The translations under genes and the position numbers were made by a program. The notes beneath the pieces are model-generated. The model had not been told where the DNA came from and searched no databases. It saw only the letters and a list, made by a program, of their open reading frames with translations. Below, one piece after another: positions 1-63,939 of a stretch of DNA of 64,000 bases. The first letter of the stretch is position 1. Every line of letters starts with the position of its first letter. The stretch comes from an uncultured Gemmatimonadaceae bacterium (GTDB lineage: Bacteria > Gemmatimonadota > Gemmatimonadetes > Gemmatimonadales > Gemmatimonadaceae): the NCBI GenBank assembly GCA_963829055.1, contig CAWHHI010000003.1, positions 518,540 to 582,539 of the forward strand. Reading direction: 5' to 3'.

Positions 1-1911
1 CGCCTCGCTGTAGATCTCCTGCTCTACGCGTTCGCGTTCGCGCTTGAACCGCTCCTTGAGTGAAGCGAACCACGCGAGGTCGATCGAGACACCCACCCAC
101 TCCATCTCGGCCAGGACCTGCAGTAGCGGAATCTCGATCTCGTGAAAGAGCGTCGTTAGGCCGTGCGTCTCGAGCTGCGGCTCGAAGATCGCGCGCAGCC
201 GAAACGCCATGTCGGCATCTTCACACGAGTAGTCCCGCGCTGCTTCGACCGGACACGCATCGAACGGGATCTCTGTCTTTCCCTTTCCGCACAACTCGTC
301 GTACGACGTCATCGTGTGGTCGAGGAACTCGAGCGCGAGGACGTCCAGCCCGTGCGAACGACGCCCCGGGTCGAGGACGTAGCTCGCCAGCATGGTATCG
401 AAGTCGAGTCCTCGCAGCGTTACGCCCGCGCGACGCAGTGAGAGGATGTCAGACTTCGCGTTCTGAGCGGTCTTCCGAACGGTGTCGTCCTCGAGCAGCT
501 CGCGGAGAGGAGTCATCGCGGCACTGTCGAGCGCTGGGAGATTTCGTACCGGCGACGTGCCTGTGGCGAGTAGACGCGCGGCGATGCTGGTGGGTTGCGC
601 TGCGGTTTTTTTTGCTTTCGCGGACGCCCGTGGCTTAGCTGTGACCGCCCGGCCGTTGGCGTCTCCGGTGGCATCGTCACCTCCTGCTACCGTGCCACGG
701 TCTTCCGGCGCGTCGGTTGGCGCGCGGTCGCCCGCGGCGTCGATCAACAGATCGCCCTGCGCCGGCTGCCACTCGCGATGGCTGAACGGCAGATAGAACG
801 CCTCACCTTCTGCTAGCGCGATCGACATCGACACTAAGCGAGACCGTAGCGGGTCGCCTCGCGTCGGCGCTCCCGGCTCGACGACGATCTCGGTATCGAT
901 CGCGATGTACTTCGCCTTGCGAGCTCGGGTCACGAGTCGCTCGACGCCCTGTACCGTGTCGATGACGGAGTACGTCGCGCTCGTCGCTTTTTCTGTCGTC
1001 GCCGGAACGACCACGTCCTTCACTAACGTGGTGAACTCGAGCTCGATGTAGATCTGCCGCAGGCGAGCCAGGTCCGCTGGCTGTACCCGGAGGCGGGAAC
1101 TGTCGAGCGCGATCGGGAGATCGTCTCTAATAGTCACTAATTCCTTCGACAACCGCGCCCGGCTCGCGTGCTCGAGCAACGCTTCACGCGGTCGTTTTTT
1201 CGTGATCTGGTCGGCCGACGACAGGATCGACTCGAGCGATCCGTACTCCGTGACGAGATCACGCGCCGTCTTGTCCCCGATTCCAGGAACACCCGGTACG
1301 TTGTCCGATGAGTCACCGACCAACGCCAGGTAATCGATGACGCGCTCCGGCGGCACACCCAAGCGTTCGCTGGCGTTTTCCGCGCCGACCCACTGTTCTT
1401 CGACGCTCGCTGGCCCGCCGCGACCCGGGTTGAGCAACCACACACCCGGCCGCACCAGCTGTTGGAAGTCCTTGTCTCCCGAAACGATGACGACGTTCAG
1501 TGACGCATCCACGGCCTGCTTGGCGAGCGTGCCGATCACGTCGTCGGCTTCGTACCCCTTGAGCGAGAGGACGGGGAATCGGTAGGCATCGAGAATCTCA
1601 CTGATCCGCTCCATGCCGCGATTGAAATCCGATTGGAGTTCTTCCGTGAGCTTTTCGCGGGTTGCCTTGTACGCCGGATATGTCTCGTGGCGGAAGGACA
1701 AGCCCGAATCATGGACCCAGCCTATGTACTCCGGCTTATGGTTGGCGATCAGCCGTTGGAGGAAGTTGACGACCCCCCAAGCCGCGGAGGTGTTCTCACC
1801 CTTGCTCGTGGTGAGTGGACGGGAAATCAGCGCGAAGAAAGCCCTGTAGATCAGGGCATATCCGTCGATCAGAAACAGACGCGGAGACGGTGGGGGCGAT
1901 ACGTCGGCCAC
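1..1911 (-). CDS. polA: DNA polymerase I (5' part; runs off the window edge)
   Basis: Manual translation from GTG 1911 gives RLFLIDGYALIYRAFFALISRPLTTSKGENT (5'-3' exonuclease N-terminus). Later DFDTMLASYVLDPGRRSHGLD and EIEIPLLQVLAEMEWVG are Pol I 3'-5' exonuclease/polymerase motifs. Absent from the ORF track because there is no stop inside the window. Confidence 0.96.
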   Translation of the reverse strand, partial: MADVSPPPSPRLFLIDGYALIYRAFFALISRPLTTSKGENTSAAWGVVNFLQRLIANHKPEYIGWVHDSGLSFRHETYPAYKATREKLTEELQSDFNRGMERISEILDAYRFPVLSLKGYEADDVIGTLAKQAVDASLNVVIVSGDKDFQQLVRPGVWLLNPGRGGPASVEEQWVGAENASERLGVPPERVIDYLALVGDSSDNVPGVPGIGDKTARDLVTEYGSLESILSSADQITKKRPREALLEHASRARLSKELVTIRDDLPIALDSSRLRVQPADLARLRQIYIELEFTTLVKDVVVPATTEKATSATYSVIDTVQGVERLVTRARKAKYIAIDTEIVVEPGAPTRGDPLRSRLVSMSIALAEGEAFYLPFSHREWQPAQGDLLIDAAGDRAPTDAPEDRGTVAGGDDATGDANGRAVTAKPRASAKAKKTAAQPTSIAARLLATGTSPVRNLPALDSAAMTPLRELLEDDTVRKTAQNAKSDILSLRRAGVTLRGLDFDTMLASYVLDPGRRSHGLDVLALEFLDHTMTSYDELCGKGKTEIPFDACPVEAARDYSCEDADMAFRLRAIFEPQLETHGLTTLFHEIEIPLLQVLAEMEWVGVSIDLAWFASLKERFKRERERVEQEIYSEA

Positions 1912-2097
1912 AGGCGTCGCTAGTTCGGGAATGGTCGAATGCACACAGCACGCGACAATGGCGTGCTCGATAGAAACTACCGGTCTGAACGCGGCATGGT
2001 GATCTACACGGGCATCGCGGCTCCATTCAGTGCGTATTCAGGTGTCTCGGACGCGGCGCTCTCATGGGCGCGCTGTCGGACCTGATCACGAGGGGCA

Positions 2098-2135
2098 TAA
2101 AAAACCCCCGCCTGCCGGTGAGGGCAGGCGGAGGC
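2098..2135 (-). terminator. Intrinsic terminator downstream of the cold-shock gene
   Basis: Minus strand reads CCTCCGCCTGCC-CTCACC-GGCAGGCGGGGG followed by TTTTTT. Confidence 0.8.
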
Positions 2136-7351: not shown

Positions 7352-7483
7352 GATGACAGTGGCATTGTCAGAACGCAGCCCTGGTACCAGCCTAACGAGA
7401 ACCAAGGGATGGGGGCCGTCGCCACAGTCATTACAACGACGGCACCTCCACCTTCCGCCCGGGTGTTTCGCTATTCGCGTTGG

Positions 7484-8371
7484 CTAGGTCAGACGACTGC
7501 TTTCCCGCACGAGTGGCATAGAGAGTGGCGTGAACCCGCGGAGTGTCGTTAGGTACGGCAGGACCAGGTCCGCACGAAACCGTTGAAGCATCCCTTCTCC
7601 GTCGTAACGTTGCCGAAATTCGACCGCCGTCATGTGGATGAGTCCACGAACGTGCCGGCCAAAGCTCTGCGGCGAGGAGTAGTCCAGTCGATTGGCGACG
7701 TTCGCGACCGAGAGGCCAGGATTCTCGAACAGCTGCGCCGCTCGGACGAGTCGTGCGGTGGCGAGGTAGCGTTTCGGAGCGGGTAGTTGCGCTCTGAAGA
7801 ATCGGCTCATGAGCGTGCTCGGAATTACGCCGAGGTAGCGCGAGAGCGATCTGATTGTTCCAATGCCGCCCGGAAGGCCGAATAGCGCTTCGAAGAACCG
7901 CCAGCAATCCGGGTGAGCACCGGCGAGATCTGTGGATAGCTGCGCCAGAGCAAGACGACTGACGTCACGCGATTGGTCAGCGAGTAGTACGTCGCGTAAC
8001 ACGCGCCACCCGGCTGGTTGACGTACATCAACGAGCGTTTGAACTCCACTGCGGCCTAACGTCAGTACGGCGGTTGGAGCGTTCGGCTCGAGCTCCGTGA
8101 GAAGCGCAACTGTGGGCACACGAGGGAACTCACGGACCAGGGTTGCCACCCGCGTAGCATCACGCGGACCACATCGCGTCACGGATACCAATACCGCAGA
8201 GGCCCGTTGCTCTTTGACGTCACGAATGACGTCGTCAATCGTGTCACGGTGAAGGGCGGTGTACAGCCCCTCCCCAGCCGCATCGACTCGGAGCCGCTCG
8301 GAAGGCATCAGAATGGTCGATACCGGGGCCAGCACCAGGCGAGGCTGGAACGTGGAATGCATGGCAGTCAC
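7484..8371 (-). CDS. AraC-family HTH regulator with receiver-like N-terminal domain
   Basis: C-terminal SVANVANRLDYSSPQSFGRHVR...TAVEFRQR AraC signature. Confidence 0.8.
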   Translation of the reverse strand: MTAMHSTFQPRLVLAPVSTILMPSERLRVDAAGEGLYTALHRDTIDDVIRDVKEQRASAVLVSVTRCGPRDATRVATLVREFPRVPTVALLTELEPNAPTAVLTLGRSGVQTLVDVRQPAGWRVLRDVLLADQSRDVSRLALAQLSTDLAGAHPDCWRFFEALFGLPGGIGTIRSLSRYLGVIPSTLMSRFFRAQLPAPKRYLATARLVRAAQLFENPGLSVANVANRLDYSSPQSFGRHVRGLIHMTAVEFRQRYDGEGMLQRFRADLVLPYLTTLRGFTPLSMPLVRESSRLT

Positions 8372-8913: not shown

Positions 8914-9842
8914 GCTCCTCACACGCCTCAGCCCCCTACACCAGACGGTATAGGGGGCTGAGTGCATTCCTGGTTCGATGGCTCGCAATTCTGAGTGTGA
9001 TATCGGCGTGTACAGCGCAGAAGCCTCAGATCGTCTCGACACCGATTCCGAGCGGGCCTAACGCGCAGAGTCGATCCGATTCTCTCGGTACGCCAGTCAG
9101 ATCAGTACTCACGATCTATCAGCCGGGCGATGTTCAATACGCAGTCCAGATGAAATCGATCGTACAGGTTGTGATGGGTGACTCGATTCCTCGAGTCGAT
9201 TCTTCGCACCTGAGAGCTGTCTTGTCAGCAAAGTACGTAGCCACGCCACAATCGCGGTTCATTCGCGCAACTGTAGTAGCTGATTCCGTAGTGCTGTCGA
9301 CATTTGCTGCTAGCACTGGTACAACGGCACTGCCTAACCAGTCCTACTCCATGGACGTTGATCCAACGAGTGGCAGGGGCACTGTCGCACGGTCGGTGTC
9401 GTCCTGCTCGCAGGATGTTATCGAGGCACCGTTTCACGGTGATGAGGTGGTTCCCACGGTTCCTTCGAATTCTGCCACGCAGTTCTGGGCTGATACGACG
9501 AACTACAGCGCTTGCCGAGGGGGAGTCTCACTACGTTTTACTCGAGTATCCAATTACCAACGCGACACGGTCACCGTTGGTACAGCCGCCGAAGCATTGG
9601 CTCGAATAGTCAGAACAACAGAAGTTCTGATCACCGGTAGCGGATCTCAGTGGCAACAACCTGTCGAAGCATCGGGTCACGGTACGGCAGTGGACACACT
9701 GATGATTAGTGTCAGCCGCTCCCGTTTACAGAGTATCTCGGGTTCCACTCAACTTGAAATGAGCTTCAAGTCAGCATTACGATCACAGCGTTTCACACAA
9801 GCAACTACGACGCAGATCATCGCCAGGCCTAACGCCCACTGA
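8910..9842 (+). CDS. Hypothetical beta-rich exported protein/lipoprotein (true start probably downstream of the rnpB hairpin)
   Basis: 310-aa ORF with a lipobox-like VISAC; no family recognised. Confidence 0.6.
   Translation: MSSSHASAPYTRRYRGLSAFLVRWLAILSVISACTAQKPQIVSTPIPSGPNAQSRSDSLGTPVRSVLTIYQPGDVQYAVQMKSIVQVVMGDSIPRVDSSHLRAVLSAKYVATPQSRFIRATVVADSVVLSTFAASTGTTALPNQSYSMDVDPTSGRGTVARSVSSCSQDVIEAPFHGDEVVPTVPSNSATQFWADTTNYSACRGGVSLRFTRVSNYQRDTVTVGTAAEALARIVRTTEVLITGSGSQWQQPVEASGHGTAVDTLMISVSRSRLQSISGSTQLEMSFKSALRSQRFTQATTTQIIARPNAH
8927..8962 (+). terminator. Hairpin immediately after rnpB
   Basis: CTCAGCCCCCTACACC-AGAC-GGTATAGGGGGCTGAG inverted repeat with a weak U-tail. Confidence 0.55.
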
Positions 9843-12791: not shown

Positions 12792-12956
12792 ATGGGTAAG
12801 CCGACGTACCGTCCTCGGAATAAGCGCCGAATCCGCACCCATGGATTCCGAGCTCGTATGGAAACGAAATGGGGTCGCGCGGTTCTCAGTCGGCGGCGCA
12901 AGAAGGGGCGCCAGCGGTTGACCGTCAAGCTTCCGACCAAGTACGCAGCCGCCTAA
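12792..12956 (+). CDS. rpmH: 50S ribosomal protein L34
   Basis: Manual translation [45 protein letters not shown]...; below the ORF track cutoff. Confidence 0.97.
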
Positions 12957-12960
12957 CGGG

Positions 12961-34742: not shown

Positions 34743-37271
<2,529 letters not shown>

Positions 37272-39875: not shown

Positions 39876-40074
39876 AACCGAGGGATCGGGGAACTGGGAA
39901 CCGAGCCTAAACACCGGAACGAATCGCCGAGATCGGATCCGGTCTCCTCTCGTTAGGCTTCGGCGACGGCAGAACTGCTGAAACGACGTCGCATGCCGTT
40001 GCCACAGAGTGGCATCTCCCCTTGCGTCGTCAGGGAAGCGGTTGTAGCCTTCCCTTATCAGACAAGGGGAACGC

Positions 40075-40422
40075 ATGGGCGACACCGAGCTGAACGTGTT
40101 TCGCAGCAGCCTCGATCTCGTGATCCTGAAGGCGCTGAGCTGGGGTCCCAGGCACGGGTATGCGGTGGCAGAGTGGATCGATCAGGCGACGAGCGCCACG
40201 ATCCTCATTGAAGAAGGGACGCTGTACCCCGCGCTCCACCGCCTGGAGCGAAAGCGGTGGGTGGACACCGAGTGGGGCGTGTCCGAGAACAACCGCCGCG
40301 CGAAGTTCTATCGCCTAACGCCCGCCGGACGCGCGCAACTCCGCAGCGAGACACCAACGTGGCTCAGGCACGCCGAGGCGATCGCGCGGGCACTCCGGGC
40401 GACTGTGCCGGAGATGGCATAG
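40075..40422 (+). CDS. PadR-family regulator (acidobacterial ADOP-associated type)
   Basis: LDLVILKAL..GPRHGY, EEGTLYPALHRLE and WGVSENNRRAKFYRLT. Confidence 0.93.
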   Translation: MGDTELNVFRSSLDLVILKALSWGPRHGYAVAEWIDQATSATILIEEGTLYPALHRLERKRWVDTEWGVSENNRRAKFYRLTPAGRAQLRSETPTWLRHAEAIARALRATVPEMA

Positions 40423-43972: not shown

Positions 43973-44080
43973 GCGATGAGAACCTCGACGACCTCGACGA
44001 CCTCAAAGAACTCGAGCACTCTGACGCACCCTACGCTGTGCCGCGTTAGGCCATGTGGCGTGGCACGGCCGGATATGCAG

Positions 44081-47796: not shown

Positions 47797-47969
47797 TGGT
47801 GTCCGGTGGGTGTCGTGGAGTGGGACAACCGAGCCGGGAAAAACCCCACACGATGGATTCAGGGGGTGAAATCAGCCACGAACGGGCATTCGCGAGACTG
47901 GCGGGTGTAAGCCGCGCTCGGCGAACGGGTTGAACGGCGTTGGGGGGGCGGTTAGCTTATGTGGCTCGC

Positions 47970-48042
<73 letters not shown>

Positions 48043-48573
48043 TTCAAGCAGGACAACAACTTAGATGACCATGGCGCGGCCGGTCGCGCGACACCCGTGC
48101 GGGAGTATATGCGGGAGTCGCATGCCGACTCGGCCGCGCTACGTTTCCGTAAACGCGACAATGCATTGAGCAGCATGAGCGAAGGACTCACGCCTGATGC
48201 CGGATCGGGTGTTTACCAGGCAAGCCGGATCACTGACAGCGAGCGGTATCTGACGGCACCGTCGTTTTCGTCCTGGCGGCGGATGTGACGTTCTACTAAC
48301 TCGCGACGGCGTTTCAGCTCGACTTCAGTGCACAGAGGCGATGTACCTCGACGGGGCTGTATCGCGACCGTACGCCCGCGGGGTTACCGGCCCGCCTTCG
48401 AGCGGGGATGCTTTCGCCGCGCTCATAGCCGTTCTGGCCAAGGATTGAACGGCAGTGCCGAACTGGAGTTATGCAACGTCGTGATTTCCTGTGCCTAACG
48501 GTAGCCTCGTAGTATCGCAGGTCACGCTTGGCACCGCCGCGACCGGTAGGCGGCCCACCTCGTCGCGCCATCC

Positions 48574-50221: not shown

Positions 50222-51613
50222 GTGCGTCTTGGCATGCTCGAAGTAGCGAGGCTCATGTCCGCGCTCATCGCGGCAGTTACGGTTGCGGCGTGCAACAACG
50301 ATGACAATGCAGTTCAGCCGACAACCCAATCGTACACGCTCGCCGTCGCCAACGCGACGGTGACCACAGCGCCGGGTGGAACGGCGACGCAGACCGTCAA
50401 CATCACGAGAACGGGCGGCTTCACCGGAGCTGTCGCGCTCACCGCCACGGGCCTCCCGACAGGCGTGACAGCAGCGTTCGATCCGCAAAGCGCCACCGGC
50501 AACTCGTCGACCCTGACGCTCACTGCCGCCGCCAACGCAGCACCAGGGAACGCAACGGTCACGGTGAAAGGGACGGCAACGGGACAGGCCGACAAGACCG
50601 TCACGTTCCAGCTGACGGTCAACGCCGCACCGGCCGGCGGGTTCACACTGGCCGCGAACCCGGCGACACTCACCATTCAGCAGGGAGCGGCCGGCACATC
50701 GACGGTGAACATCACGCGGACCAACGGGTTCGCTGGCGCCGTCACGCTCACGGTGACCGGTCTGCCTAACGGCGTGACGGCCACGTTCAATCCCGCGGCG
50801 CCGACGACAAACTCCTCGACGCTGACGCTGACGGCATCGGCGACCGCGGCGACCGGTTCAGCCGCCGTGACGATCCGCGGGAACGCGACAGGGCTGACCG
50901 AGCAGACGACCACGCTCGCCTTGACCGTGAACGCCCCTCCAGCCGGTGGCTTCACGCTGGCGATGAACCCCGCGGCGCTGACGGTGGTGCAGGGTCTCTC
51001 CGCCACCTCCACCGTGAACATTACGAGAACCGGTGGATTTGCCGGCTCGGTCAGCCTCACGGCAAGCGGCCTGCCTAACGGCGTGACGGCGGCGTTCAAC
51101 CCGACGGACGCCACGGGGGCGACATCGACGCTCACGCTCACGGCGTCGGCGACGGCTGCGATCGGCACCGTAACGGTCACGATCAAGGGCACGTCGCAAG
51201 GTCAGACCGATCAGACCACGACGCTTGCGCTCACCGTCAACATCCCGGGCAGCTTCTCGCTGGAAGTCAATCCGAAGACGCTCACGATTCAGCAGGGAGC
51301 GAATGGCACGGCGACGGTGACCATCACGCGAACGGGCGGGTTCACCGGCGCAGTCACGCTGACCGCAATCGGCCTGCCTAACGGGGTGACGGCCACGTTC
51401 AACCCGGCCGCACCAACCACGGACCAGTCGACGTTGACGCTCACCGCCTCGGCGACGGCCGCACCGGGTTCGACGACCGTGACGATTCAGGGGAACGGGA
51501 CGGGTCTCGGCGAACACACGACGACGATCACGCTGATTGTGAGCAGTCCGGCAGGGAGCAGCGGGAATGTCGGTGCGAGTACGGGAAGGTCCTCGACCGG
51601 GAGCTCACCGTGA
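50222..51613 (+). CDS. Lipoprotein with four ~100-aa Thr/Ala-rich Ig-like beta-sandwich repeats (C-terminus possibly truncated)
   Basis: AGGAGG before GTG 50222; lipobox VAAC; four repeats of TVNITRTGGF.G.V.LTA.GLP.GVTA.F.P...STLTLTA. Confidence 0.85.
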   Translation: MRLGMLEVARLMSALIAAVTVAACNNDDNAVQPTTQSYTLAVANATVTTAPGGTATQTVNITRTGGFTGAVALTATGLPTGVTAAFDPQSATGNSSTLTLTAAANAAPGNATVTVKGTATGQADKTVTFQLTVNAAPAGGFTLAANPATLTIQQGAAGTSTVNITRTNGFAGAVTLTVTGLPNGVTATFNPAAPTTNSSTLTLTASATAATGSAAVTIRGNATGLTEQTTTLALTVNAPPAGGFTLAMNPAALTVVQGLSATSTVNITRTGGFAGSVSLTASGLPNGVTAAFNPTDATGATSTLTLTASATAAIGTVTVTIKGTSQGQTDQTTTLALTVNIPGSFSLEVNPKTLTIQQGANGTATVTITRTGGFTGAVTLTAIGLPNGVTATFNPAAPTTDQSTLTLTASATAAPGSTTVTIQGNGTGLGEHTTTITLIVSSPAGSSGNVGASTGRSSTGSSP

Positions 51614-52066: not shown

Positions 52067-55000
52067 ATGTCGCGCGCCGTATATGCCCTCCTGGTCGGGA
52101 TCGACGAGTACACCTCGCCAGTGCCGCCTCTCAAGGGCTGCGTCAACGACATCACAGCGGCGGAGCTGTACCTCCGCGATCGCTACTCCGGTCAGGCAAA
52201 CGCGCTCGACATCGTTTCGCTGACCAATGCTTCCGCTACTCGTGATGCGGTCATCGACGCCTTTCGCCGCCAGCTAGGCCGAGCCGGAGCCGACGACACC
52301 GCTCTGTTTTACTTCAGCGGACACGGGTCGCAGCAACCCTGCGCACCAGAACTGCTCTACCTCGAGCCGGACGGAATGGACGAGACGCTCGTCTGCTACG
52401 ACAGCCGTATTCCGGATCAATACGACCTCGCTGACAAAGAGCTCGCGGGGCTGATCCACGAGGTTGCCGCACGCGGCGCGCACGTCGTCGTGATACTCGA
52501 TTGCTGCCACTCAGGGAGTGGTACGCGCGCGCTCGAGACGGCAGTGCGACGCGCGCCGACGGACGATCGTCCGCGTCCGCTCGACAGCTACATAGTCGAT
52601 CCGCGACGACCGGTCAGCACGACCAGGCGTGACGCACCCAGCAGCACGAGCGGCTGGGCTCAGCTGCCGGAAGGCAAACACATTCTGCTTGCCGCGTGTC
52701 GTGCCGACGAGCGCGCCCAGGAGATCCCGTTAGGCGGCAGCCGACGAGGCGTTTTCTCCTACTATCTGCTCGACGCGCTCGCGCGGGCGCGCGGCGCGCA
52801 GACGTACGGGTCGATCTTCCGACGGGTCAAGGCGCTCGTGGAGCAGAAGGTGTCGTCACAGTCGCCCGAGATCGAATGGAGCGACGCCGACGAGCTGAAT
52901 CAGCCGTTCCTCGGCGGCACGGCCGTCGCGGAGGAGCCGTACTTCGTGCTGCGATATGACCCCGAGCTCGGATGGGCGATCGATGGCGGTGCGGTGCACG
53001 GGATCCAGCCGGCCGACGGCGATGAGACGACCACGCTGGCGATCCATCCGTTCGACATGCGAATGGACGCGAGGCGTGACACGAAGCCGTTGGCGACCGC
53101 ACGCGTGTTCGAAGTCCAGCCGCACGTGAGTCGCGTAGACATCGACGTAGCCGACGTTGAGCTCGACGAGACGCAGACGTACGTGGCGGTCGTCATCGGC
53201 GTGCCGCTACCGCTCCTGGGTGTTGTCATCGACGGCGATGACGCAGGCGTACACGCCGCGCGTCAGGCATTGGCGACCGCGGGGCCCGACGGCGGGGCTT
53301 CGATCTATGTACGCCTCGCCTCGGATGCCGCGACCGCCGAGCTCCGGATTCACGCAGAAGCCGAGCGCTACACGATCATGCGCGCAACCGGTGATCGTCG
53401 TCTCGTCGGCGACGTTTCGGGCTACGACGCGGATGTTGCGTTGCGCGCGATCCGGCGAGTCGAGCACATCGCGCGGTGGACGACAATTGCGCGGTTGTCC
53501 AATTCTGGCAGTGGTATTGCGCCTGACGCGATACAGCTCGAGGTGCATCGCGTCGTCGGGACGGCCGTGAAGCGGTCCTCGGTCGATGTGCCAACGGAGC
53601 TGGTGCCGAGTGGCCGTGAATTGCGCTTCGAGTACGAGTACCGGGGCGGCAGGTGGCAACCACCATCGTTCAAGATCAAGCTGCGCAACGATGGCGATCA
53701 GCCTTTATGGTGTGCGCTGCTGACGCTCTCCGAGTCGTTCGAGGTAAACGCGAAGGGTCTGCTTTCGGCGGGCAGGGTACGGCTCGAGCCAGGGCAGGAG
53801 GTGTGGGCCAAGCAGGGACAGCCCATCAGCACCGGCGTTCCAGAACCACTCTGGCGCGCGGGAGTCACAGAGCGGCGCGACGTCGTCAAGCTCATTGCGA
53901 GCAATCGCGACTTCAACCCGTCGCTGTTGGAGCAGGAGAAGCTCGACACGCCGAGAACCGCGGGAGCCAAACGCGCGGTTCCGGGGCGGAGCTCGCTCGA
54001 CAGGCTCATGGCGCGGGCGGACACACGCGAGTTCCTGGACAGTGATTCATCGTTCGCGGACTGGGTGACGTCGGAGCTGTCTATTACGACCGTGCGTCCG
54101 CTCGACAGCGTGGCGCTCGCTGACGGGCGGGCAGTCGAGGTCACCACGGGCGTGACGCTCGAGCCACCAGCCGGGTTTCGGGCACGCGCACGCCTAACGA
54201 GCGTATCCGACGGCGGTCGAGACCTCGGCAACGCGCTCGTGCCGCCCATCCTTCGTGACGCGGCGGTGAGCGAGCCCTTTGGGTTCTCGACTGCGCGTGG
54301 CAGTGACCCGGGTCTCACCGTTCTCGAGCTGATCGACGTCGCCGATCACACGGTGGTGACGCCGGAGGCGCCGTTGACTGTCGTGATCGACGCGGGCAAC
54401 GCGCGTGACCTACCGACGGTGGGCGATGCTAGTGTAGCGCATTTGCTTCCCGTCGCGTTCGATGGCGAGTTCTATCTGCCGCTCGGGCACGCGACGTCTC
54501 GTGACGGGACCGTCAGGGTCACGCTCGACCGGTTGCCGGCGCCGGTCGCGAGCGACCGGAGTCTCTCCGGTTCCATTCGGATCCTGCTGCACAAGGTCGT
54601 GAGCAAGGTGCTCGGGACACCCTACGAGTATCCACTTCTCACGGTGGTCGATATCAACCTCGATGGCACGGTCACGTACGTGAAAGACCCGTCGGCGGTG
54701 CGGGCGCGTGTGACCGACGCCGACCGGGTGCTGCTCTACGTGCACGGGATCATCGGCGACACGCGTGTGATGGCGGCGAGCGCGTACACGCCTAACGCCG
54801 TCGGAATACTCGGCGTGCCACCTCTGGCCGATCGGTACGATCTCGTGCTGGCGTTCGACTACGAGAACGTACAGACATCGATCCAGGACACCGCGCGGAC
54901 GCTGGGCAAGCGGCTGGCGGATGTGGGGCTCGGTGCTGGCCACGGCAAGACGCTCCACGTGATCGCCCACTCGATGGGCGGGCTGGTGTCACGCTGGTTC

Positions 55001-55573
55001 ATCGAGCGGGAGGGCGGTCGAGCGGCGGTCCAGCGGCTGGTCACGGTGGGCACACCTAACGACGGATCGCCGTGGTCAAAGGTGGAGGATGTCGCGACGA
55101 CGCTGCTGTCACTTGCGCTGAATGGCATCGGCGCGTGGCCGGCGACAGTGCTGGGCGCCTTGGTGAGCGGCGTCGAGAGGGTGGATGTGACGCTGGACTC
55201 GATGCAGCCGGGCTCCGAGCTGTTGAAAACGTTGTGGGCGAGCGATGATCCCGGCGTGCCGTATACGCTCATCTCGGGAAATACGACGCTCATTGCGACC
55301 GTCGTGACGGGTGACAATCGAGTGGCGCGGCTGCTGTCACGTGTCCTCTCGCCGTCGGCGCTGCATCGGGTGGCCGGGCTGGCGTTCTTCGGCGAGCCTA
55401 ACGACATTGCCGTTCGCGTCGAGAGCGGGCATCGCGTACCCATGACACGAACCCCTCGCCCTGTGGTGGTCCAAGTCGCGAGCGATCACCTGTCGTACTT
55501 CCGCGATCCGGCAGTGCTTCGCGCGCTCGCCGACGCGCTGCCGCGTGGAGCGACAGCCGAGGCGGTATCGTGA
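52067..55573 (+). CDS. Caspase-like (C14) protease fused to a C-terminal PGAP1/lipase-like alpha/beta hydrolase
   Basis: YALLVGIDEY, LKGCVND, YFSGHG and ILDCCHSG (intact His-Cys dyad). C-terminal VHGIIG, IAHSMGGL, GTPNDGS, NDIAV and DHLSYF. Confidence 0.92.
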   Translation: MSRAVYALLVGIDEYTSPVPPLKGCVNDITAAELYLRDRYSGQANALDIVSLTNASATRDAVIDAFRRQLGRAGADDTALFYFSGHGSQQPCAPELLYLEPDGMDETLVCYDSRIPDQYDLADKELAGLIHEVAARGAHVVVILDCCHSGSGTRALETAVRRAPTDDRPRPLDSYIVDPRRPVSTTRRDAPSSTSGWAQLPEGKHILLAACRADERAQEIPLGGSRRGVFSYYLLDALARARGAQTYGSIFRRVKALVEQKVSSQSPEIEWSDADELNQPFLGGTAVAEEPYFVLRYDPELGWAIDGGAVHGIQPADGDETTTLAIHPFDMRMDARRDTKPLATARVFEVQPHVSRVDIDVADVELDETQTYVAVVIGVPLPLLGVVIDGDDAGVHAARQALATAGPDGGASIYVRLASDAATAELRIHAEAERYTIMRATGDRRLVGDVSGYDADVALRAIRRVEHIARWTTIARLSNSGSGIAPDAIQLEVHRVVGTAVKRSSVDVPTELVPSGRELRFEYEYRGGRWQPPSFKIKLRNDGDQPLWCALLTLSESFEVNAKGLLSAGRVRLEPGQEVWAKQGQPISTGVPEPLWRAGVTERRDVVKLIASNRDFNPSLLEQEKLDTPRTAGAKRAVPGRSSLDRLMARADTREFLDSDSSFADWVTSELSITTVRPLDSVALADGRAVEVTTGVTLEPPAGFRARARLTSVSDGGRDLGNALVPPILRDAAVSEPFGFSTARGSDPGLTVLELIDVADHTVVTPEAPLTVVIDAGNARDLPTVGDASVAHLLPVAFDGEFYLPLGHATSRDGTVRVTLDRLPAPVASDRSLSGSIRILLHKVVSKVLGTPYEYPLLTVVDINLDGTVTYVKDPSAVRARVTDADRVLLYVHGIIGDTRVMAASAYTPNAVGILGVPPLADRYDLVLAFDYENVQTSIQDTARTLGKRLADVGLGAGHGKTLHVIAHSMGGLVSRWFIEREGGRAAVQRLVTVGTPNDGSPWSKVEDVATTLLSLALNGIGAWPATVLGALVSGVERVDVTLDSMQPGSELLKTLWASDDPGVPYTLISGNTTLIATVVTGDNRVARLLSRVLSPSALHRVAGLAFFGEPNDIAVRVESGHRVPMTRTPRPVVVQVASDHLSYFRDPAVLRALADALPRGATAEAVS

Positions 55574-58500
55574 CGTTAGCGCCGTCGACAGCGAGTCCGG
55601 GGCTGTGGGTGAATCCGGCGTGGAAGTCAGGCACGCCGGGAACGTTCGCCGTTGTCGTCGGTGCGAGCCGTTACGAGCACCTCGCCGGTGGTCACGGGGC
55701 GCTGGCGACGGACAACTTCGGGCTCACGCAGCTCAGCGCATCGGCGTTGAGTGCGTACCGCTTCTTCGAGTGGTTGCGGGGCGATTACGCAAATGCGGCA
55801 AGTCCGATCGCCATGTGCTGGCTACTGCTCTCGCCGTCGGATGCGGAGCGGTCGGTCGAGCCCGGAATCGCGGAGAATGTGGCTGCGCCGACGTTGCCTA
55901 ACCTGCAGCGCGCGGTAGGCGAGTGGTTCACGGCGATGAAGCAGCTTCCCTCGAGCGCCGCGAAGGACAGTCGAAGCATTCTTCTGGTTCAGCGGTCACG
56001 GATTCGATGTCGGCAGTGAGCACCTGCTGTTGCCTTCGGACTATCTCGAGCCGCCGCTGTCGATGCCGGATCGTGCGGTGTCGGCTCGACGTCTCGTTGC
56101 CGCGATGGAAGCGCTCGAGACGCGAGATCAGCTGTTCTTCCTCGACACCGGGCGCGAGCAGCTGCAGCAACTCCAGACGTTCGGCATTACGGGGATGCCG
56201 CTCCTGCCGGTGCCGATCGCTCGCACTGGCCCGGTCGATCGGATGTCGGTGACCCTCGGCGCCAGCATGCCGTCGGGGCGAGCGTTTCAGCCCGGCAATC
56301 CGAAGGACGGAATTTCGTTCTTTGCGCAGGCGGTGATCGAGGGGCTCAGGGGGGAAGGTGGGCTCAAGCCCGACTGCAGCGTGTCGCCGTGTGTGGTGAG
56401 GTTGTTTCCGTTCGTGAGCTTCGTGCAGAGTCGCGTGCAGCAGGTGCTGAGCGAGTACAACGTGACCGGCCAGGCCGTGAGGCTGCAGCTCGAGGGGTCG
56501 TCGCACGACGTCGTGCTCACCCAGGTTCCTGCGCCTGTCGCGCAGACGGCGCAAGCCCAAACGAGCGCTAACGAAGCTTCGCTGGAGACTCAGACCGTAT
56601 TGGCGGCCACACCCACGGTGGACGCCGCGCCGACGTATATGGTGGCAGCCACCGCGGCCATCGTGACGCAGGGCGCGACGGGCACCAGCACGATCACCAT
56701 CACGCGAACCGCCGGCTTCGCCGGCAACGTGGCGTTAGCCGCCGAGGGGTTGCCGACGGGCGTCACGGCCGCATTTACGCCTAACAACACGAACACGAAC
56801 GGATCGGTGCTGACGTTGACGGCTGCCGCGAATGCCGCCGTTGGCACGTCGACCATCACCGTGCGCGGCACCGCGACCGGGCAGACGGACAAGACGACGA
56901 CCGTCCAGCTCACCGTGAGCGCCGCCGGTGGCGGGGCGAGCTTCTCGGTCGCAGCCGGTGAAGCGAAACTTGACAATGCCTATGCGCTACTGATCGGTGT
57001 CGGCGGCGCGTCGGAGAAGGACACGGCGCTCATTCGGGACGTTCTCGTCGACCAACGATACGGCGGCTACGGCGAAAATCGCGTTAGGCGTATAGTCGGC
57101 TCCGAGGCCAACCGGGAAGGGATTGTCGCGGCGCTTCAGGAGCTCGCGTGGATCACCGCGCCTGGTGAGCGCATCCTTATCTACTGCTCGAACCCGGGCA
57201 CGCAAGTTCCGGCGTCAAAGGGCCCCAATGCGCTCGAGAGCGCGATCGTTCCCGCGGACTACGAGGAGGGGGGATTCGTCCCTGCGTCGGAGCTCGAGCG
57301 CCTGCTCGACGCGTTGAGTGGCAGGAGTGTTCTCTTCCTCGCCGACTACGCCCACGCAGCGCGCGGCCTCCGCATGGGCGCAGGCCACGTCGCGATTGCG
57401 GTCGGCGCGGAGGGGATGGCGCTCGAAGACTCGAACGCGACAGCCGACACGGCAAGCGGCCGATATGCGCGACAGCTCACCACGGGGCTGCGGGGCGGGG
57501 CTGCGGGGTTGGATGGAACGATCAGCAGTCTGGATCTGTTCGAGTACATGTCCACGAGGCTGTGGAACGATGAGGATCGGGTGGTTCTGGTCGGGGATAC
57601 GGCGGCCGATTTTGTGATAGCGTCGGGATCGTCGCCCGACTCGCCTGCTGCGCCGGCGTACGACGATGACTTCCAATACGACGTCTATGTGAGCGCGGCG
57701 GACCGCAATGCCACGACGCTCCACAGTCGCGTGCTCCCGCGGCTGATCCAGGCTGGCCTTCGGATCGCGATACTCCCGGCGATCGACACCAAACGCGGCG
57801 ATACCGATCAGCGGGCCGGCGTACGCCATGTCGCGACCGCGGAACGTGGCATTGCGCGGTCGCGTCGGACGCTCGCGCTGTTATCGGAAGTGTACGTGCG
57901 CACCGTTGCGCGTACACTGGGGAGCGTGTTCGACCGTGCGTTAGGCGCCGGGGAGGGCCGAGACCGTCTGTTGGGTGCTCGATTAGGCCGGTGGGCAACG
58001 GCACGCGCACTCGCCGACATGCGGCTACCGTCAGTGCTCGGCGATCCAGCCCAGTGGGTCTCGGTCAAGAACGCGCTGGATCTGCTCGTCGGCGACACGA
58101 CAAACGAGCCGGACGCCGACGATCGAACCGACGCCGAACCCTCGACGGACACGGAGCCCGGCTCGTACGCGCTCGTCATCGGCATCGATACGTATCAGAA
58201 ATCGATGGCTCTCCGTGGGTGTGCACAGGACGCAAAACTCATTGCCGAATTACTCTCGAATGGTGGCCCAGGATCGTCCGCGTACGACGTGCGGCTGCTC
58301 ACCGACGGTGATGCGACGCGCGAGGGAATCCTCTCCGCACTGCACGAGGTCGCGGAAAAAGCGACGAGCGACAGCACCGTTCTGATCTTTTTCGCCGGGC
58401 ATGGTGCGGACGCGGGCGACGCCGGCGCCTCGGCGATCGAGCCGACTGAAAGTGCGCTCGTCGCGGTCGACTACACCGAAGCGGATCCACGGCTGGTGAC

Positions 58501-60871
58501 GACGGCGGATCTCGAGGCGGTTCTGGCAGACATGTCTGCACGGCACATCGTAGCCCTGGCCGACGCGAGCTATGCCAATCGCATCATGCGCGGCGGGACG
58601 GGCCGAGTGCTCGTGTCCGCCGGGCGTGAAGGCGAAGTGGCGTACGAGAGTCGTGACCGCGATGCCTCAGGGGTCGGCGAGTTTTCGAGTGCCGTCATCG
58701 ACGGGATCCGTGGGGGCGCATCATCGGCCGATGGGCTCGTGCGCGTGCTCGACCTGTACGAGTTCGTCCACCGGCGTGTCGTGGCGAAGGGTCTACAGCA
58801 CCCGTACGTTGGCGGCGACCTGTCGACAAACGTAGCGGTTGCCGTGTCGCCTAACGAGATGCCGCGTGATCCGGCGGCGGGTGCGGACGGTTATCGCTAC
58901 GATGCGTACCTGAGCTTCGTGGGTGACGACGCGTCACTCGTGTGGAACGAGCTCGCGCCGCGTCTCGCCACCCTCGGGCTACGAATCGCGGTGTCGCACG
59001 ACCTCGAGGACGCGCGGTTCTACCGTGTCGCGACACCCGAGCGCGGTATCACCCAGGCGCGGCGCTCCATCGTCGTCGTGTCGGCAAAGTCGTTGGCGGA
59101 GTCGACGGCGGAGTTCGAGCGGTTGGCGGTGGCGACCATCGGGCTCGACGGAGCGGCCGCACGCACGCTCCGCATCACCACGAGCGACGATCTCGCACAG
59201 CAGATTCGCATCGAGCCACCGGTTCGCGAGTGGCTGCGGCAGGCGCCCGGATGGACGTTAGGCGCGTTGCTCGAGCGCGATGAGCAACTCACCGACCTGG
59301 TCGATCGACTGCGGGCCCCGATCGAACCGGCGGCCGCACCCGCGACGATCTTCATCAGCTACAGTCGACACGATAAAACGGCGGCGGACCGGCTTGCTGC
59401 GGCGCTACGCGGCGTCGGGTACAACGTGTGGCTCGATCAGGAGCTCAACGCGGGAGAGACGTTCCAGGCGACGCTCGAGCGAATGATCGCGGAGTGCACG
59501 ATCTTCATCCCGATCCTGTCGATAACGAGCCTCGGCCGCCAAACCGGGTATTACCTCGCCGAGTGGAATCTGGCACTCGAGCGGGGACGTCGGTCTCCGG
59601 AGTCGCGGTTCATCATTCCCGTCGCAATCGATGACGTCACCCCGACGTCGTTCTCTGAGGCGGTGCCACGCGAGCTAGCCGCGATTCAGTGGAGTCGATT
59701 GCCGAACGGGGAGGCGTCGTCGCGTTGGCTCGCGATGATCGCCGAACTCGTTCAGCGTACCAGGGCGCCGGCGGATACACCGTCCGAATCCGGTGACGCA
59801 AGCGCCCACACGATACCGCGCGAATTGCTCCCCAGGCTGTCATCCTCGTCGCGGCGAGCGCTGCTGAGCGCGGAGGGATACCGGCGTGCCGGCAACGCGG
59901 CGGTCGTGGACACGGGGCACCTGCTTGGCGGGTTATACGAGAAGCCGGAAGGCTGGGCTCATGCGGTGATGCAAGCCGCAGATTTCGACGGATCGTGGGC
60001 AGGGCTGTTCACCGTGGGTCTCGGGGAGGGTCTCCACTCGTCGGGAGCGGCGCGCGCACCATCGAGTGCGCTCGAGACCATGCGGATCTCGCGGGCGGTA
60101 CTGGCTGCATTGACCGAAGCGGGACGACTCGCCGACGAGAATCGTGCAACGACGATACAGGCCCGATATCTGCTGGCCGGCCTACTCGGCGTATCTAACG
60201 AGCCGGCCGCGGTGTGGATGGCGGACCGTGTCGAGCTCGATGTCGAGGCGTTGCGGCGTCTCATTCTCGCGGCCGTCGAGGGGTCACCACCGCTGGACGA
60301 CGTGCGGCGTCTTCGGCGTCGAGGCGCGCGGCTGGTGCTCGCGCCGGACCAGGCGCGGGCAGGGGCGCCAGTCTACGCGGCCGCGTTCAGCCCCAATGGC
60401 GCGTCGCTCGCAACCGCGCACTATGACGGCGGCGTTAGGCTCTGGAATCCAGCCGACGGGACACTCATGCGACTGCTCGGGGCGACAGGAGAGGAAGGGC
60501 ACGGCTGGGTCAACTGCCTCGCCTGGTCGCCTAACGGCGACGCCCTCGTGTGGGGGACGCAGGACGGCTCGATTCTCTTCTGGGACGCACGCACCGATGC
60601 GGTGGGGACGATTCCCGGTGTGCACGATGGGCAGGTCGTGTCCATTCGGGTGAGCCCCGACGGGCGGCTGCTCGTCTCGACGGGAGGAGACAGCTCCGTG
60701 CAGATCCGCGACTGGACCGACAGAGAAATGTTGGGTCACGGGGCAGGAGTGTATCCCGTCCAGCGCGGGATCTCCGGGATCGAATTCAATGTCGATCGCG
60801 GTCTGGTCTTCGTCGCGTCGCCGGACGGAAGCGTGACGCGATTGCCACCGTCGGCGCCGGGGTGGGCGTGA
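55570..60871 (+). CDS. Multidomain protein part 1: pseudo-caspase / Ig repeat / pseudo-caspase / TIR / pseudo-caspase / TIR / TIR / Clp-N / WD40 (+1 frameshift at ~55981)
   Basis: GTGA-coupled start. TFAVVVGASRY, then after the shift FWFSGHG...LLLPSDY...FFLDTGR; AYALLIGV; YDVYVS; YALVIGID...FAGHG...ADAS; YDAYLS; IFISYSRHD...YYLAEW; TGHLLGGL and ARYLLAGL; AFSPNG..LATA..DG.VRLW. Confidence 0.85.
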
Positions 60872-62013
60872 GCTCGGCACCGACGAATTCTGCGCCGGGC
60901 GTGGCCATGCGAGCGGCGAAGACGAGCGATGGCAGCCGAATGGTCATCGCCGGGCCAGGGGAGGCGATCAGCGTCGTTGCCCTGGAGACCGGCCGGCCGA
61001 TCGCCACGTTCGAGGGGGGCCACGCCACCGACGTCCTCGCCGTCGCGGTCACCCCGGACGATCGGCTTGTCGTCTCCGCATCGGAGGGGGGTACGATCCG
61101 CGTGTGGGAGCTCGACGGCGGACGCCTAACGCGCACGACCGAGCCTCGCGCGGGACCGCTCTGGACACTTCGTCTGGTCGAAGATGGTGACATTGCCATC
61201 GTCGGTGCGAGCGACGGGGCGCTCGTCGTCGTCGACATCACGGTCGGTCGAGTCATCCGCAGCATTCAGGCACACGACGGCGGCGTCAACGCGCTGGCCG
61301 TCTCGCCTGACGGCCGGATGCTCGCGTCCGCCGCAATGGATGGGACGACGCGCATCTGGGATCTCGCGAGTATCGGAGCCGTGCGACCGGAGCCGATCGA
61401 CCGGCGGGTAGCCCTGGCGGCAATCGAGATCGCACGCGGCGACCTGCTCGAGCGGGACGAGGACGCGCTCGTCTACGCCGTTGGCCTCGACCCACAGAAC
61501 GGCGGCATGATCGGCAATCGGCTCGCGCGCATGCTGGAGAGGCCCCAGCGCGAGAACATGGTGCAGCGACCGGCGCTCAGGTCTCGTGAGGCACGCGCGA
61601 TCCGGATGGACTCGGGCGCGCTACGAGCGAAATACGTCATTCAGACGGCGACCGAGGAGGAGCGCGGGCATGAGGAGATGCACTCGCGAGAAAGCATCAC
61701 GGACGCCGTCACCTCCGCGTTGGAGGTCGCCGAGTCGTTAGGCAATGTGCGGTCGGTGTCGTTGCCGAGTGTTGGGACGGGGGCGGCTGGGTTCGATCCT
61801 GCCACACTCGCCCCGGGCATTCTCGAGGCGATCGTGCGGCACCTGGAGCGTGGCAGCTATCTCGAGCACGTGACGCTCGTGTTCAACAACGAGGCGCACG
61901 AGCGCGCTTACAGCGACGCGCTCGCGTCGTTGCGCGCCGGCATCGAGCGCGACCAGGCGGCAGCGTCGGCCGCGACAGCCTACGTGCTGCAACTCACGCG
62001 GCCACGGAGATGA
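60868..62013 (+). CDS. Multidomain protein part 2: WD40 repeats + macrodomain (separate GTGA-coupled gene or frameshifted continuation)
   Basis: GHATDVLAVAVTPDD and AHDGGVNALAVSPDG..LASAAMDGTTRIWD; IEIARGDLL, GALRAKYVI and SVSLPSVGTGAAGF. Confidence 0.82.
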   Translation: MSSAPTNSAPGVAMRAAKTSDGSRMVIAGPGEAISVVALETGRPIATFEGGHATDVLAVAVTPDDRLVVSASEGGTIRVWELDGGRLTRTTEPRAGPLWTLRLVEDGDIAIVGASDGALVVVDITVGRVIRSIQAHDGGVNALAVSPDGRMLASAAMDGTTRIWDLASIGAVRPEPIDRRVALAAIEIARGDLLERDEDALVYAVGLDPQNGGMIGNRLARMLERPQRENMVQRPALRSREARAIRMDSGALRAKYVIQTATEEERGHEEMHSRESITDAVTSALEVAESLGNVRSVSLPSVGTGAAGFDPATLAPGILEAIVRHLERGSYLEHVTLVFNNEAHERAYSDALASLRAGIERDQAAASAATAYVLQLTRPRR

Positions 62014-62038
62014 ATCGGCTCCGGTAACGGTCGGCGAT

Positions 62039-63939
62039 GTGATCACCCTCCGTCTCGAGCTCCGACGCGCGTTTGTTGGGGAACAGGGCATCGCACTGCC
62101 GTCGAGTGCGGGAGAGGTAAACTGCTTCGTCACTGGGGATGCGGGGCTCCGGCTCGAGAGCGCCGAAGCGGTCGCGCTCCGGCTGCCGTCGGACGGAGCC
62201 GTCGCGGCGGGAGAGATCCGGTTGCGGGCGCATCTCGTCGGTGAGCGACGGTATACCGTCGAGCTGTATCTGGACGGCTCCGGGTCGGACTCAAGGTCGC
62301 TGCGCGAGTTCAGCGATACGGTGTCGGTTGCCGCACCCATCGCCGCGTTTCGACCCGAGATACTCCCGCCGCTGGACCTGCGGGTTGCCGCACGTCCGGA
62401 TGTTGTGCTCGAGGTGACCGCGACCAGCGCGAACGGGTCGGGTGGTGCACACCGCCTAACGTACCGGCTCAGCTCCCGGGTGGCCGGTGCACAGTTCGCG
62501 GCCGCGCTCGCCGGCGTAGTGGACGTCGGGCCAGTGGAGCGCAGCCGCATCCGGTCGCTGGTTCGCGATGCCGTCCGGATGTCGACTGCCGAGCAGCCTG
62601 AGGACTCGCGAGCGCGGATGGTAGCGATCGGCACGTATCTCTACGATCGATTCGTTCCGCGCGAGGGCGCAGGGGAGCTTCGCGAGATGATCGAGCAGCT
62701 CGAGACGGCGCGTCGGAATCGCATCACGACAGCGACGAAGCCGGAGCGGCCGCTCACATGGCTCATCATCGAGAACGGGACTGAAGCCTCGCTGCCGTGG
62801 GAGCTGGTGGTGCCTTACGAGTCCAACTCTCCCGGCGCGCAATTCCTCTCGGAGTGGTGGCAGATGAGTCACTGGCTCGTGGGGCTCGGTCCGCCGCTCC
62901 AGAGCGAGGTGCCCGTCGGAGATGTGGCACTCATGTATTACGGCCAATCAGTGGACGAGACCGACGACGCTCGGCAGTTAGGCGCGTGGGGACGATTGCT
63001 GAACGCGAGCATGGCCAGCGACATCAAGCAGGTGGCGGCGCCGGAAACGCCGGTGTACGGGCTACATCTTCTCAGACAGGGTAGGACGGGTGCACTCGGC
63101 ATCGCGCCGCGCGGGGCTGGTCCGGCGACCGACGAGGTTCGCCGGGCGCGACTCGATCTTCGCCTCAAGCGCCCCCTCGTCACGCTCGGTGTTCTCGATG
63201 GCCGGTCGGGCGATGAGACGAATGCGATGGATGCGTCAGCCGTCGCGGACGGCAACTGGCCGCTCGTCGAGCGGGCGCTGCCGTATCTGCGTGCTGGCGC
63301 GAGCGGCGTCGCGGGGGCGTGGTGGCAGACATCGGCAAGTTCCGACCGCGTCTTCTGGACGACCTTCTACGACCTTCTGATCGCCAGGCAGAATGTCGTT
63401 AGGCGAGAGCATCTGGCGCGCTCGGCTCGCGGTTGCGCGGGCGCTGCCGGAACGGTCCGACTGGCTCGCGTACGTGCTATTCGGGAACCCGCTGGCGCGG
63501 CCGTACGTCCCTGCGGAGAGCGAGGGGTACACGACGCTCCAATGTCGATGCCGACAGTCCTCTTCGTGTCGGGAAGGAGTACATCTTCTCGGCATCGATC
63601 CGCACGCGCCCGCCACTCTGGCATCAGGACCGGCTCGTCCGCGTGCAGAAGGACGAAGAAAGTGAGGAGGCGTCGGAGGCGCTCAGTGCTCTGTTTGTCG
63701 CGCCCGGACTGCAGGACGCCGTACCCGAGCCGGTGGCCATGCGACCTGTCGGCCGAACGATCCATGAAGCAACGTGCGCTCTCACGCCGAAGCAACCGGG
63801 TGAGTATCTGTTGACGGTCCGTCTACTCAAGGGTGATGAACGATTGCAGACGCTGCGCCTGCCATTGATCGCCAGTAACAGTCGGCCGACGAACCTCGAC
63901 GGAGAAGCGACACTCGTGTCCGTGGGAGAATCGACGTGA
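62039..63939 (+). CDS. Multidomain protein part 3: beta-sandwich + degenerate CHAT domain (frameshifts at ~63392 and ~63540)
   Basis: IGTYLYDRFVP, LPWELV, FLSE, LHLLRQG, RPLVTLG and YLRAGASGVAGAWW...FYDLL, then SLGESIWRAR...WLAYVLFGNP in the next frame. Confidence 0.75.

Follow-up and report, generated by a model that had tools for sequence, protein, structure and literature searches.

The octamer GCCTAACG (CGTTAGGC on the opposite strand), hereafter called the word, was found in large excess throughout the genome of the Gemmatimonadaceae bacterium under study (G000), and its copies avoided one another over roughly 200 bp. The analysis concerns a stretch of 64,000 nucleotides, referred to as the window, which is the oriC region of this genome (dnaA, dnaN, and yidC); the nearest relatives of its DnaA are labelled Gemmatimonadaceae and share 68–69% identity. 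The exclusion zone is the main new piece of anatomy reported here. Full-text literature searches, whose coverage excluded subscription journals and supplements, yielded unrelated papers and papers on HIP1, none of which described the word for these bacteria. The pattern points to a binding site of about 10 bp, and we tentatively favor a word resembling DNA uptake sequences as its explanation.

Excess of the word in the window and in the whole genome

An earlier note on the window had counted at least 42 exact copies, 22 in one orientation and 20 in the other. The count proved to be exactly 42, with 22 copies of GCCTAACG (+) and 20 of CGTTAGGC (−) spanning 154..63404. In 100 dinucleotide shuffles of the window, 1.2 ± 1.1 copies were obtained with a maximum of 4, and none of the 100 reached 42. 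One-base variants of the tolerated kind described below added 16 further copies, and the smallest gap among exact copies was 96 bp. Thirty-seven of the 42 copies were inside called genes and five were intergenic or in uncalled DNA; the genic copies used four reading frames, namely those avoiding a stop.

The whole genome of 7.78 Mb contained 5,004 copies, which were found on 20 of 20 contigs at 478–802 copies per Mb each with balanced strands. Among the 8-mers with at least 100 copies, the word ranked first under Markov models of orders 0–3, with a 17- to 49-fold excess. High-order Markov nulls did not flag it in this genome and are uninformative here, since 56% of all CTAA 4-mers come from the word itself, which dominates its own shorter words. 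Genes were called with a purpose-built dicodon model, and the calls are approximate owing to many frameshifts in the assembly. The 6,396 genes contained 3,491 coding copies, compared to 116.5 expected under a synonymous-codon null (30-fold); the k-mer check proposed in the earlier note gave a genome-wide signal under the low-order Markov and the codon nulls. Copies wholly inside called genes numbered 3,900 of 5,004, and in three of four metagenome-assembled genomes (MAGs) the word was about as dense in spacers as in genes.

The earlier note had also claimed that genic copies are written through the rare codons CTA and TTA, which agrees with the finding that 45% of all TTA codons in the genome fall in the word. 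In addition, 280 of 1,074 TAA stops overlapped it. Among the peptide contexts able to spell the word in G000 genes, 22% did so, and the value for x-Pro-Asn-x was 58%; in the protein-sequence comparison, the reversed control N-P rose too, with small counts. Genes with low GC at third codon positions had fewer copies (0.44 vs 0.72 per kb). Four-fold degenerate sites within 150 bp of the word showed a GC excess of +0.5 to +2 points within genes, and the controls showed about +0.3.

The flanks of the copies carried at most 0.13 bit, and the commonest 24-mer extension occurred six times. As there is almost no information in the flanks, the word is not an inserted repeat, and a repetitive extragenic palindrome (REP) or miniature inverted-repeat transposable element was rejected for lack of conserved flanks beyond the core. 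An artefact of one sequencing method is unlikely, since many assemblies made independently of one another contain the word, as do finished plasmids. The longest stretches free of the word, three in number (C11:1-46000, C6:5400-55000, and C6:595000-623000), held core genes that looked foreign by their translations; these stretches, seemingly from other phyla, are probably chimeric joins of the assembly. A second over-represented family (TGTCATCC, CTCGGAAT, and TCGGAATGA, several hundred copies each) topped the maximal-order Markov list and is probably a REP-like repeat.

Local exclusion between copies and the predicted binding site

Gaps of less than 100 bp between copies in G000 occurred at 0.12–0.33 of the random expectation in four of four orientation classes. 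For 88 control 8-mers of similar abundance, the first four bins were never below 0.68 (lowest values 0.68–0.85, medians 1.1–1.2). When the copies were redistributed at random over the 15,478 codon contexts in which the word can be spelled, the pair density relative to this null was 0.06 at <25 bp, about 0.2 at 25–100 bp, 0.44–0.57 at 125–200 bp, 0.81–0.92 at 250–500 bp, and about 1.0 beyond, and a Gaussian fit gave a range of about 230 bp. A spellable context was filled in 3.5% of cases with a functional copy within 50 bp, compared to 30–34% with one at 400–1,000 bp. The exclusion also crossed gene borders, acting between a gene and a neighboring copy outside it, and pairs in opposite orientation excluded each other as strongly as those in the same orientation. 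Inverted pairs at <40 bp numbered four in the whole genome, and those with a 6-bp spacer were rare and mostly unremarkable. The zone recurred in G014, which belongs to another genus. One pair was observed at <100 bp in the Chthoniobacterales described below versus 5.9 expected, the numbers being small, and 200 kb of Gemmatirosa plasmid DNA suggested exclusion with considerable noise.

The variants ACCTAACG, CCCTAACG, GCATAACG, GCCTAACA, and GCCTAACC likewise avoided the word (0.28–0.36). No avoidance was seen for GCCGAACG, GCCTGACG, GCCTCACG, GCCCAACG, and GCCTACCG, and changes in the TAAC core escaped exclusion. Weak variants had A at +1 more frequently (33–57% vs 25%), and several also had T at −1; such compensating flanks are as expected from a binding threshold. 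From these patterns we infer that the word is a binding site of about 10 bp, (T/C)GCCTAACG(A/C), with a strict TAAC core, which is read on double-stranded DNA and whose benefit would saturate across about 200 bp.

Conservation at orthologous sites

Conservation was scored in codon alignments of best-hit proteins with the copies of G000 as reference. The copies were intact at 37 of 63 sites in G005, 26 of 87 in G004, 5 of 7 in G006, and 6 of 21 in G014, and the background conservation of all 8-mers was 19%, 16%, 17%, and 8%, respectively. Conservation at orthologous sites, which the earlier note had put forward as a check, stood at 29–59% against a background of 8–19%. In four word-scarce genomes, 2 of 40 copies were intact. 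Rare codons were kept several-fold more often within the word than outside it. Divergence at four-fold sites was no lower near conserved copies (0.46–0.51 near, 0.48–0.52 far), and gains within 100 bp of lost copies suggested at most a weak compensatory effect (12 vs 8.3 and 20 vs 15.2).

Distribution in Gemmatimonadota, in a second phylum, and in phages

Six of six other genomes of the genus of G000 contained 2,501–5,112 copies. In the order Gemmatimonadales, 22 of 250 further genomes had at least 100 copies per Mb (17 of 117, 3 of 117, and 2 of 16 by family); this tally was read from a table, and G013 and G261 enter only its denominators, as word-poor. Most of the remaining genomes of the order had <20 copies per Mb, and clustered copies, where examined, were in integron arrays. 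Relatives differed widely in density, from roughly 5 up to 1,250 copies per Mb, and background levels occurred within genera in G150, G060, and G051; in one and the same genus, G122 and G210 had 870–974 copies per Mb and G150 had 13. Word-rich and word-poor genomes were interleaved, even within a genus, on quick MutS and ComEC trees, many forks of which were weak. Outside the order, none of 62 genomes of the phylum was word-rich, nor was any of 401 genomes of the class of G333 or of five single genomes from other groups. Two megaplasmids of the cultured type strain Gemmatirosa kalamazoonensis KBS708 carried 701 and 778 copies (about 690 per Mb) and were not counted as independent of the order-wide tally. 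Their dialect was stricter, TGCCTAAC(G>A), and the dialects of G000, the Gemmatirosa plasmids, and the Chthoniobacterales differed from one another.

A metagenome scan for the word gave 120 loci, and the 47 of at least 4 kb were examined. Seven loci with 56–61% GC carried the word in genes on both strands and showed only distant likeness to G000 proteins. The 90%-identity clusters for two of the seven were labelled Chthoniobacterales or Spartobacteria (Verrucomicrobiota), and the other loci were assigned by likeness. In the class to which an Opitutia genome belongs, 11 of 400 genomes encoded an LpxK 76–91% identical to that of such a locus; eight of these had 101–738 copies per Mb and three had 34–68, and 49 other genomes of the same class that were tested had at most 17. 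The Chthoniobacterales genome dialect was GCCTAACGA, with A at +1 in 101 of 112 copies. Scanning these few loci for proteins unusually close to those of G000 revealed ordinary conserved genes only.

Viral loci found by a two-copy pattern numbered 122; most held just those two copies, and some held attC-like arrays. Three phage records carried the word throughout their genes: G265 with 31 copies in 17 kb and with terminase and portal genes, G266 with 29 copies in 44 kb (98% complete), and provirus G267 with 18 copies in 49 kb. Relatives of G265, the densest of the three, were too distant for a comparison. Pasteurellaceae phages are also reported to accumulate uptake signal sequences (USS) (PMC6776037), and therefore the phage copies cannot tell uptake from an intracellular reader. 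Five viral contigs (L339, L342, L349, L355, and L366) contained attC-like sites in the same orientation between small open reading frames (ORFs), apparently cassette arrays.

Relationship to integron attC sites

The earlier note had equated the word with the attC core, and it is indeed identical to the attC end seen most often in these lineages. Of 33 distinct attC sites from word-poor Gemmatimonadales, 29 started with GCCTAACA and 4 with GTCTAACA; in reverse, they ended with GCCTAACG (28), GTCTAACG (4), or TGCTAACG (1). The two ends GCCTAACA and GCCTAACG are the two commonest word forms in Gemmatirosa. The right ends of Chthoniobacterales attC sites read CTAACGA in reverse in 30 of 30 cases, matching the +1 A dialect of the genome word, and their first bases were mostly ATC (12), ACC (7), GCC (6), and GTC (4), the genome word having GCC. 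ATCTAAC (12 of 30) and GTCTAAC (4 of 30; 4 of 33) were common as attC ends and not enriched in genomes, and G000 contained 24 copies of GTCTAACG versus 5,004 of the word. The attC ends and the genome word share their consensus, one dialect base follows the local attC, and the tolerances differ. The GTT crossover of the R box is present in the word, which also agrees with the 3′ ends of HS287 and HS286, two general primers for attC, as given in PMC10963911.

The possibility that the genome copies are attC sites was rejected: hairpin pairs of R″/R′ and L box (about 50–150 bp) were depleted, and most copies are genic. IntI was equally common in word-poor genomes, PF13495 likewise, and the IntIs of word-rich genomes formed no clade. 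Two integron loci were observed besides. L652 (G952 C2:1392001-1405000), in a Chthoniobacterales-like genome, has an array of 21 homogeneous attC sites, each about 123 bp long, next to intI. L081 (G000 C20:208008-208985) is an IntI-like gene with a very long branch and attC-like sites downstream, and it is changed where we would place the catalytic lysine and the H-x-x-R motif's first histidine.

Uptake genes, methyltransferases, and replication signals

ComEC turned up in every genome of the two sets searched (40 of 40 and 5 of 5), DprA in 55 of 56, and a ComEA-type helix-hairpin-helix protein in 41 of 41; in G000, comEA is directly upstream of pilB-pilT-pilC (C12:489000-495000). The hosts encode an uptake machine of type IV pilus, ComEA, ComEC, and DprA, and so do word-poor genomes. 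The earlier note envisaged co-occurrence with a competence gene; since ComEA, ComEC, and DprA are present whether a genome is word-rich or word-poor, no such link can be demonstrated. The search for a reader gene had no positive outcome: ComEA, ComEC, DprA, IntI and its N-terminal domain, the 5-methylcytosine (m5C) methyltransferase, and pilin families failed to track the word.

The m5C methyltransferase family PF00145 was found in none of four word-rich genomes (G000, G162, G014, and G154) and in the word-poor G150 only. The methylome of G. kalamazoonensis, determined by SMRT (single-molecule real-time) sequencing, contains RGATCY, ATGCAC, and CCAGN7TCA only (PMC3974934). None of these motifs is contained in the word, and the methyltransferase link of the HIP1 type that the earlier note had raised was not borne out. 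Adenine methyltransferases were looked for only by a crude motif screen, in an assembly rich in frameshifts, and SMRT may miss some modifications.

On contig C16, CGTTAGGC was on the presumed leading strand in 55% of cases (368 vs 297); for 212 letter-permuted controls, the median leading-strand share was 51% and the 90th percentile 60%. The oriC contig showed no orientation skew of the word. The earlier argument against Chi or FtsK-orienting polar sequences (KOPS) was upheld by the lack of replichore polarity and by an exclusion blind to orientation. A XerC/D half-site was also rejected, dif being canonical and unrelated to the word.

Positions of the copies in the window

The leftmost copy (154..161, −) is in a minus-strand ORF running off the left end and reads GGC CTA ACG (G-L-T). 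The copy at 7390..7397 (+) is intergenic, right after pyrE, and that at 8054..8061 (+) reads ACG TTA GGC in an AraC-like regulator gene (7484-8362, −). Two copies at 9056 and 9827 (9056..9834, +) both encode P-N (CCT AAC) in an ORF at 8910-9842. No copy was present in dnaA or dnaN. Between dnaA and yidC, one copy (12951..12958, +) is intergenic or in uncalled DNA, and yidC contains another (14680..14687, −; GTT AGG, V-R), which is followed by 11 kb of core genes with no exact copy. A peptidase-like gene (25679-27055) contains one copy (25752..25759, +; CGC CTA ACG). Two copies each are in holA (30241 and 30511, within 30241..30518, −; TTA GGC), in mutS (32044..32783; 32044 + as R-L-T and 32776 − as S-L-G), and in a cystathionine beta-synthase-like gene (35222 and 35599, within 35222..35606, +).

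At 39951..40320, the copy at 39951 (−) is intergenic and that at 40313 (+) is within a 115-aa ORF. An ADOP permease gene has three copies (40772, 41612, and 42428, within 40772..42435, −), each encoding A-L-G with TTA. Within 44044..48500, the copies at 44044 and 48493 are intergenic or in uncalled DNA, those at 45335 and 46460 are in an ORF at 44081-46762 (−), and those at 46963 and 47388 are in a FecR-like gene. Three copies at 50764..51383 (+) are in an ORF at 50234-51613, each encoding L-P-N-G. Caspase-domain genes at 52067-55573 and 56063-60871 contain four (52728..55403) and six (57082..60536) copies, respectively. The last four, within 61124..63404, are in a macro-domain gene at 60907-62013 (61124 and 61736) and in an ORF at 62039-63814 (62454 and 63397).

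The density of the word was 0.27 per kb at 1-30,000, 0.85 per kb at 30,001-50,000, and 1.21 per kb at 50,001-64,000; the island that the earlier note had described as equally dense is therefore denser than the first 30 kb. The region 50183-63814, the richest in the word, contains large genes with EACC1-type caspase domains, a macro domain, and a weak match to Thoeris ThcB4, and is possibly a defense or signaling island. At 11380-12708, the DnaA match ends at profile position 363 of 437, and at 36236-37272, a D-Ala-D-Ala ligase appears split across two frames; both are probably assembly indels, which are frequent in G000.

Possible explanations

Under the explanation that we favor, a sequence-specific double-stranded-DNA-binding protein would prefer the word as its site, and one bound site would serve a few hundred bases in either orientation. 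The protein would belong to the natural-transformation uptake machine, as with DNA uptake sequences (DUS) and USS. Fragments bearing the word would enter and recombine more often, so that point mutations creating it would spread and those destroying it would be replaced, mostly at synonymous positions. Copies would avoid each other because a second one on the same short fragment would add little. In Haemophilus influenzae, two USS within 100 bp are reported not to raise uptake (PMC7811141), a redundancy that would predict avoidance between copies. The absence of the word from foreign-looking stretches was also counted in favor of uptake, as were the tolerance profile with its compensating flanks, the conservation at orthologous sites, the dialects, the presence of uptake genes, and the phage copies. 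A binding word that resembles uptake sequences and is maintained by drive or by weak selection is a plausible, though tentative, account, in which the protein reader, its action at uptake, and drive as the cause are presumed from the genomic patterns.

Several observations weigh against uptake. The density of the word in the phage fragment G265 (1.83 per kb) was above that of any host seen, and no integrase or repressor match was found among the 41 ORFs scanned in G266. Inverted-pair terminators of the Haemophilus type were lacking, as close pairs were depleted. USS are reported to be denser in core genes, whereas the density of the word was lower near oriC and also on four large core-chromosome-looking contigs, one of which holds dif (0.47–0.51 vs about 0.68 per kb). 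The word-poor G150 (13 per Mb) shares ComEA, ComEC, DprA, and a cluster of FimT-like pilins with its word-rich congeners. A comparison of pilins in three word-rich and two word-poor genomes revealed no family confined to the former, and no feature of the ComEA alignment marked word-rich genomes. Finally, uptake alone does not explain why two phyla converge on the attC consensus.

Alternatively, a cytoplasmic protein may bind the word and organize, protect, or license about 200 bp around it, weak selection keeping one site per stretch. Such a protein could be a nucleoid or topology factor, mark a landing site for repair, or read a nuclease-stopping self-mark, and phages would gain from carrying the word. 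The fixed short range of about 230 bp suits a protein footprint, and the similar densities in spacers and genes in three of four MAGs, the copies in G265 and in G266 with no detected integration genes, and the slightly raised GC of four-fold sites up to 150 bp away are in line with it. However, densities falling from 1,250 to about 5 per Mb, to background within genera, are hard to reconcile with an essential chromosome function, synonymous divergence was no lower near conserved copies, and no candidate protein emerged. We regard this explanation as somewhat unlikely.

An integron integrase or a kindred tyrosine recombinase may instead write or favor the word, with attC-loaded IntI attacking genomic near-sites of the attG type, aborted exchange or repair leaving R-box sequence behind and the best local site drawing activity from its neighbors. 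The agreement of attC ends with the commonest word forms in Gemmatirosa and of the +1 A dialect with the Chthoniobacterales attC speaks for an integrase, and IntI is reported to insert cassettes at many genomic GWT sites (bioRxiv 2022.09.11.507474) and to act on transforming DNA (PMC12614218). On the other hand, IntI is as common in word-poor genomes, the IntIs of word-rich genomes form no clade, the tolerated variants of attC and genome word differ, and targets inside essential genes should be selected against. We know of no integrase-driven conversion of genomic sites of this kind, and we consider the explanation unlikely. The same low likelihood is given to a form of uptake in which the receptors of two phyla are tuned to attC ends and forage cassettes from any donor; the genomic copies would then be a by-product of uptake-driven recombination, and the zone of about 200 bp would reflect how large the DNA pieces are or how far the receptor reaches.

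A ratchet of the HIP1 type, in which a methylated base steers mismatch repair and word-creating errors are kept until sites lie within one repair tract, would act on phages and plasmids too, and Elhai's model predicts saturation with distance (PMC4390886); it is nevertheless highly improbable, given the absence of PF00145 from four word-rich genomes, the differing methylome motifs, the non-palindromic word, and substitution rates no lower nearby. A polar chromosome signal (Chi, KOPS, or a priming site) is already largely refuted, as the 55% leading-strand share on C16 is within the range of the permuted controls, the oriC contig has no skew, opposite pairs exclude equally, and dif is unrelated.

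Comparison with known systems and implications

The word resembles DUS and USS in being a non-palindromic word of 8–10 bp that occurs about once per 1–2 kb on both strands and arises in genes by point mutation, as well as in its lineage dialects, absence from foreign-looking stretches, presence on phages, and redundancy of close copies. It differs from them in sequence and phyla, in lacking inverted-pair terminators, in apparently not being denser in core genes, in its on/off occurrence within genera, and in having one consensus, equal to attC ends, in two unrelated phyla. The DUS receptor in Neisseriaceae is ComP. The predicted USS receptor in Pasteurellaceae is ComN/PpdA, according to PMC12616744.

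For HIP1 (GCGATCGC) of cyanobacteria, a 15- to 300-fold excess, conservation in coding DNA, and one-off variants mostly at the ends have been described (PMC5861425, PMC4390886), and a link to transformation has been proposed (PMC13756078). The word is likewise an octamer in large excess that is conserved in coding DNA, but it is non-palindromic, no cognate methyltransferase was found, and its exclusion extends over about 200 bp, whereas the period of HIP1 is tens of kb. Of the likeness to HIP1 and uptake sequences drawn in the earlier note, the genome-wide signal through rare codons stood and the methyltransferase link did not. Unlike attC R boxes and attG, the genome copies are lone half-sites without L boxes, hairpin, or partner, and lie in frame in core genes. 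Like Chi and KOPS, the word is a non-palindromic over-represented octamer, but it has no replichore polarity and its redundancy ignores orientation. These comparisons suggest that the word works like DUS/USS or HIP1, and it lacks the traits by which HIP1, Chi, and attC are defined.

The exclusion statistic may foretell the specificity of the reader. The deposited type strain KBS708 carries the word, and word-rich and word-poor congeners allow gene-content comparison. On the practical side, the word flags contigs of foreign origin in these assemblies and hints at the likely hosts of phage contigs. To our knowledge, sequence-specific DNA uptake is established in just two bacterial families, and HIP1 is known from a single phylum. 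If the present word is the third of its kind, extending to two more phyla and spelled like the integron crossover site, it would point either to an uptake receptor of a new type or to a novel mode of genome rewriting by integrases or chromosome proteins.

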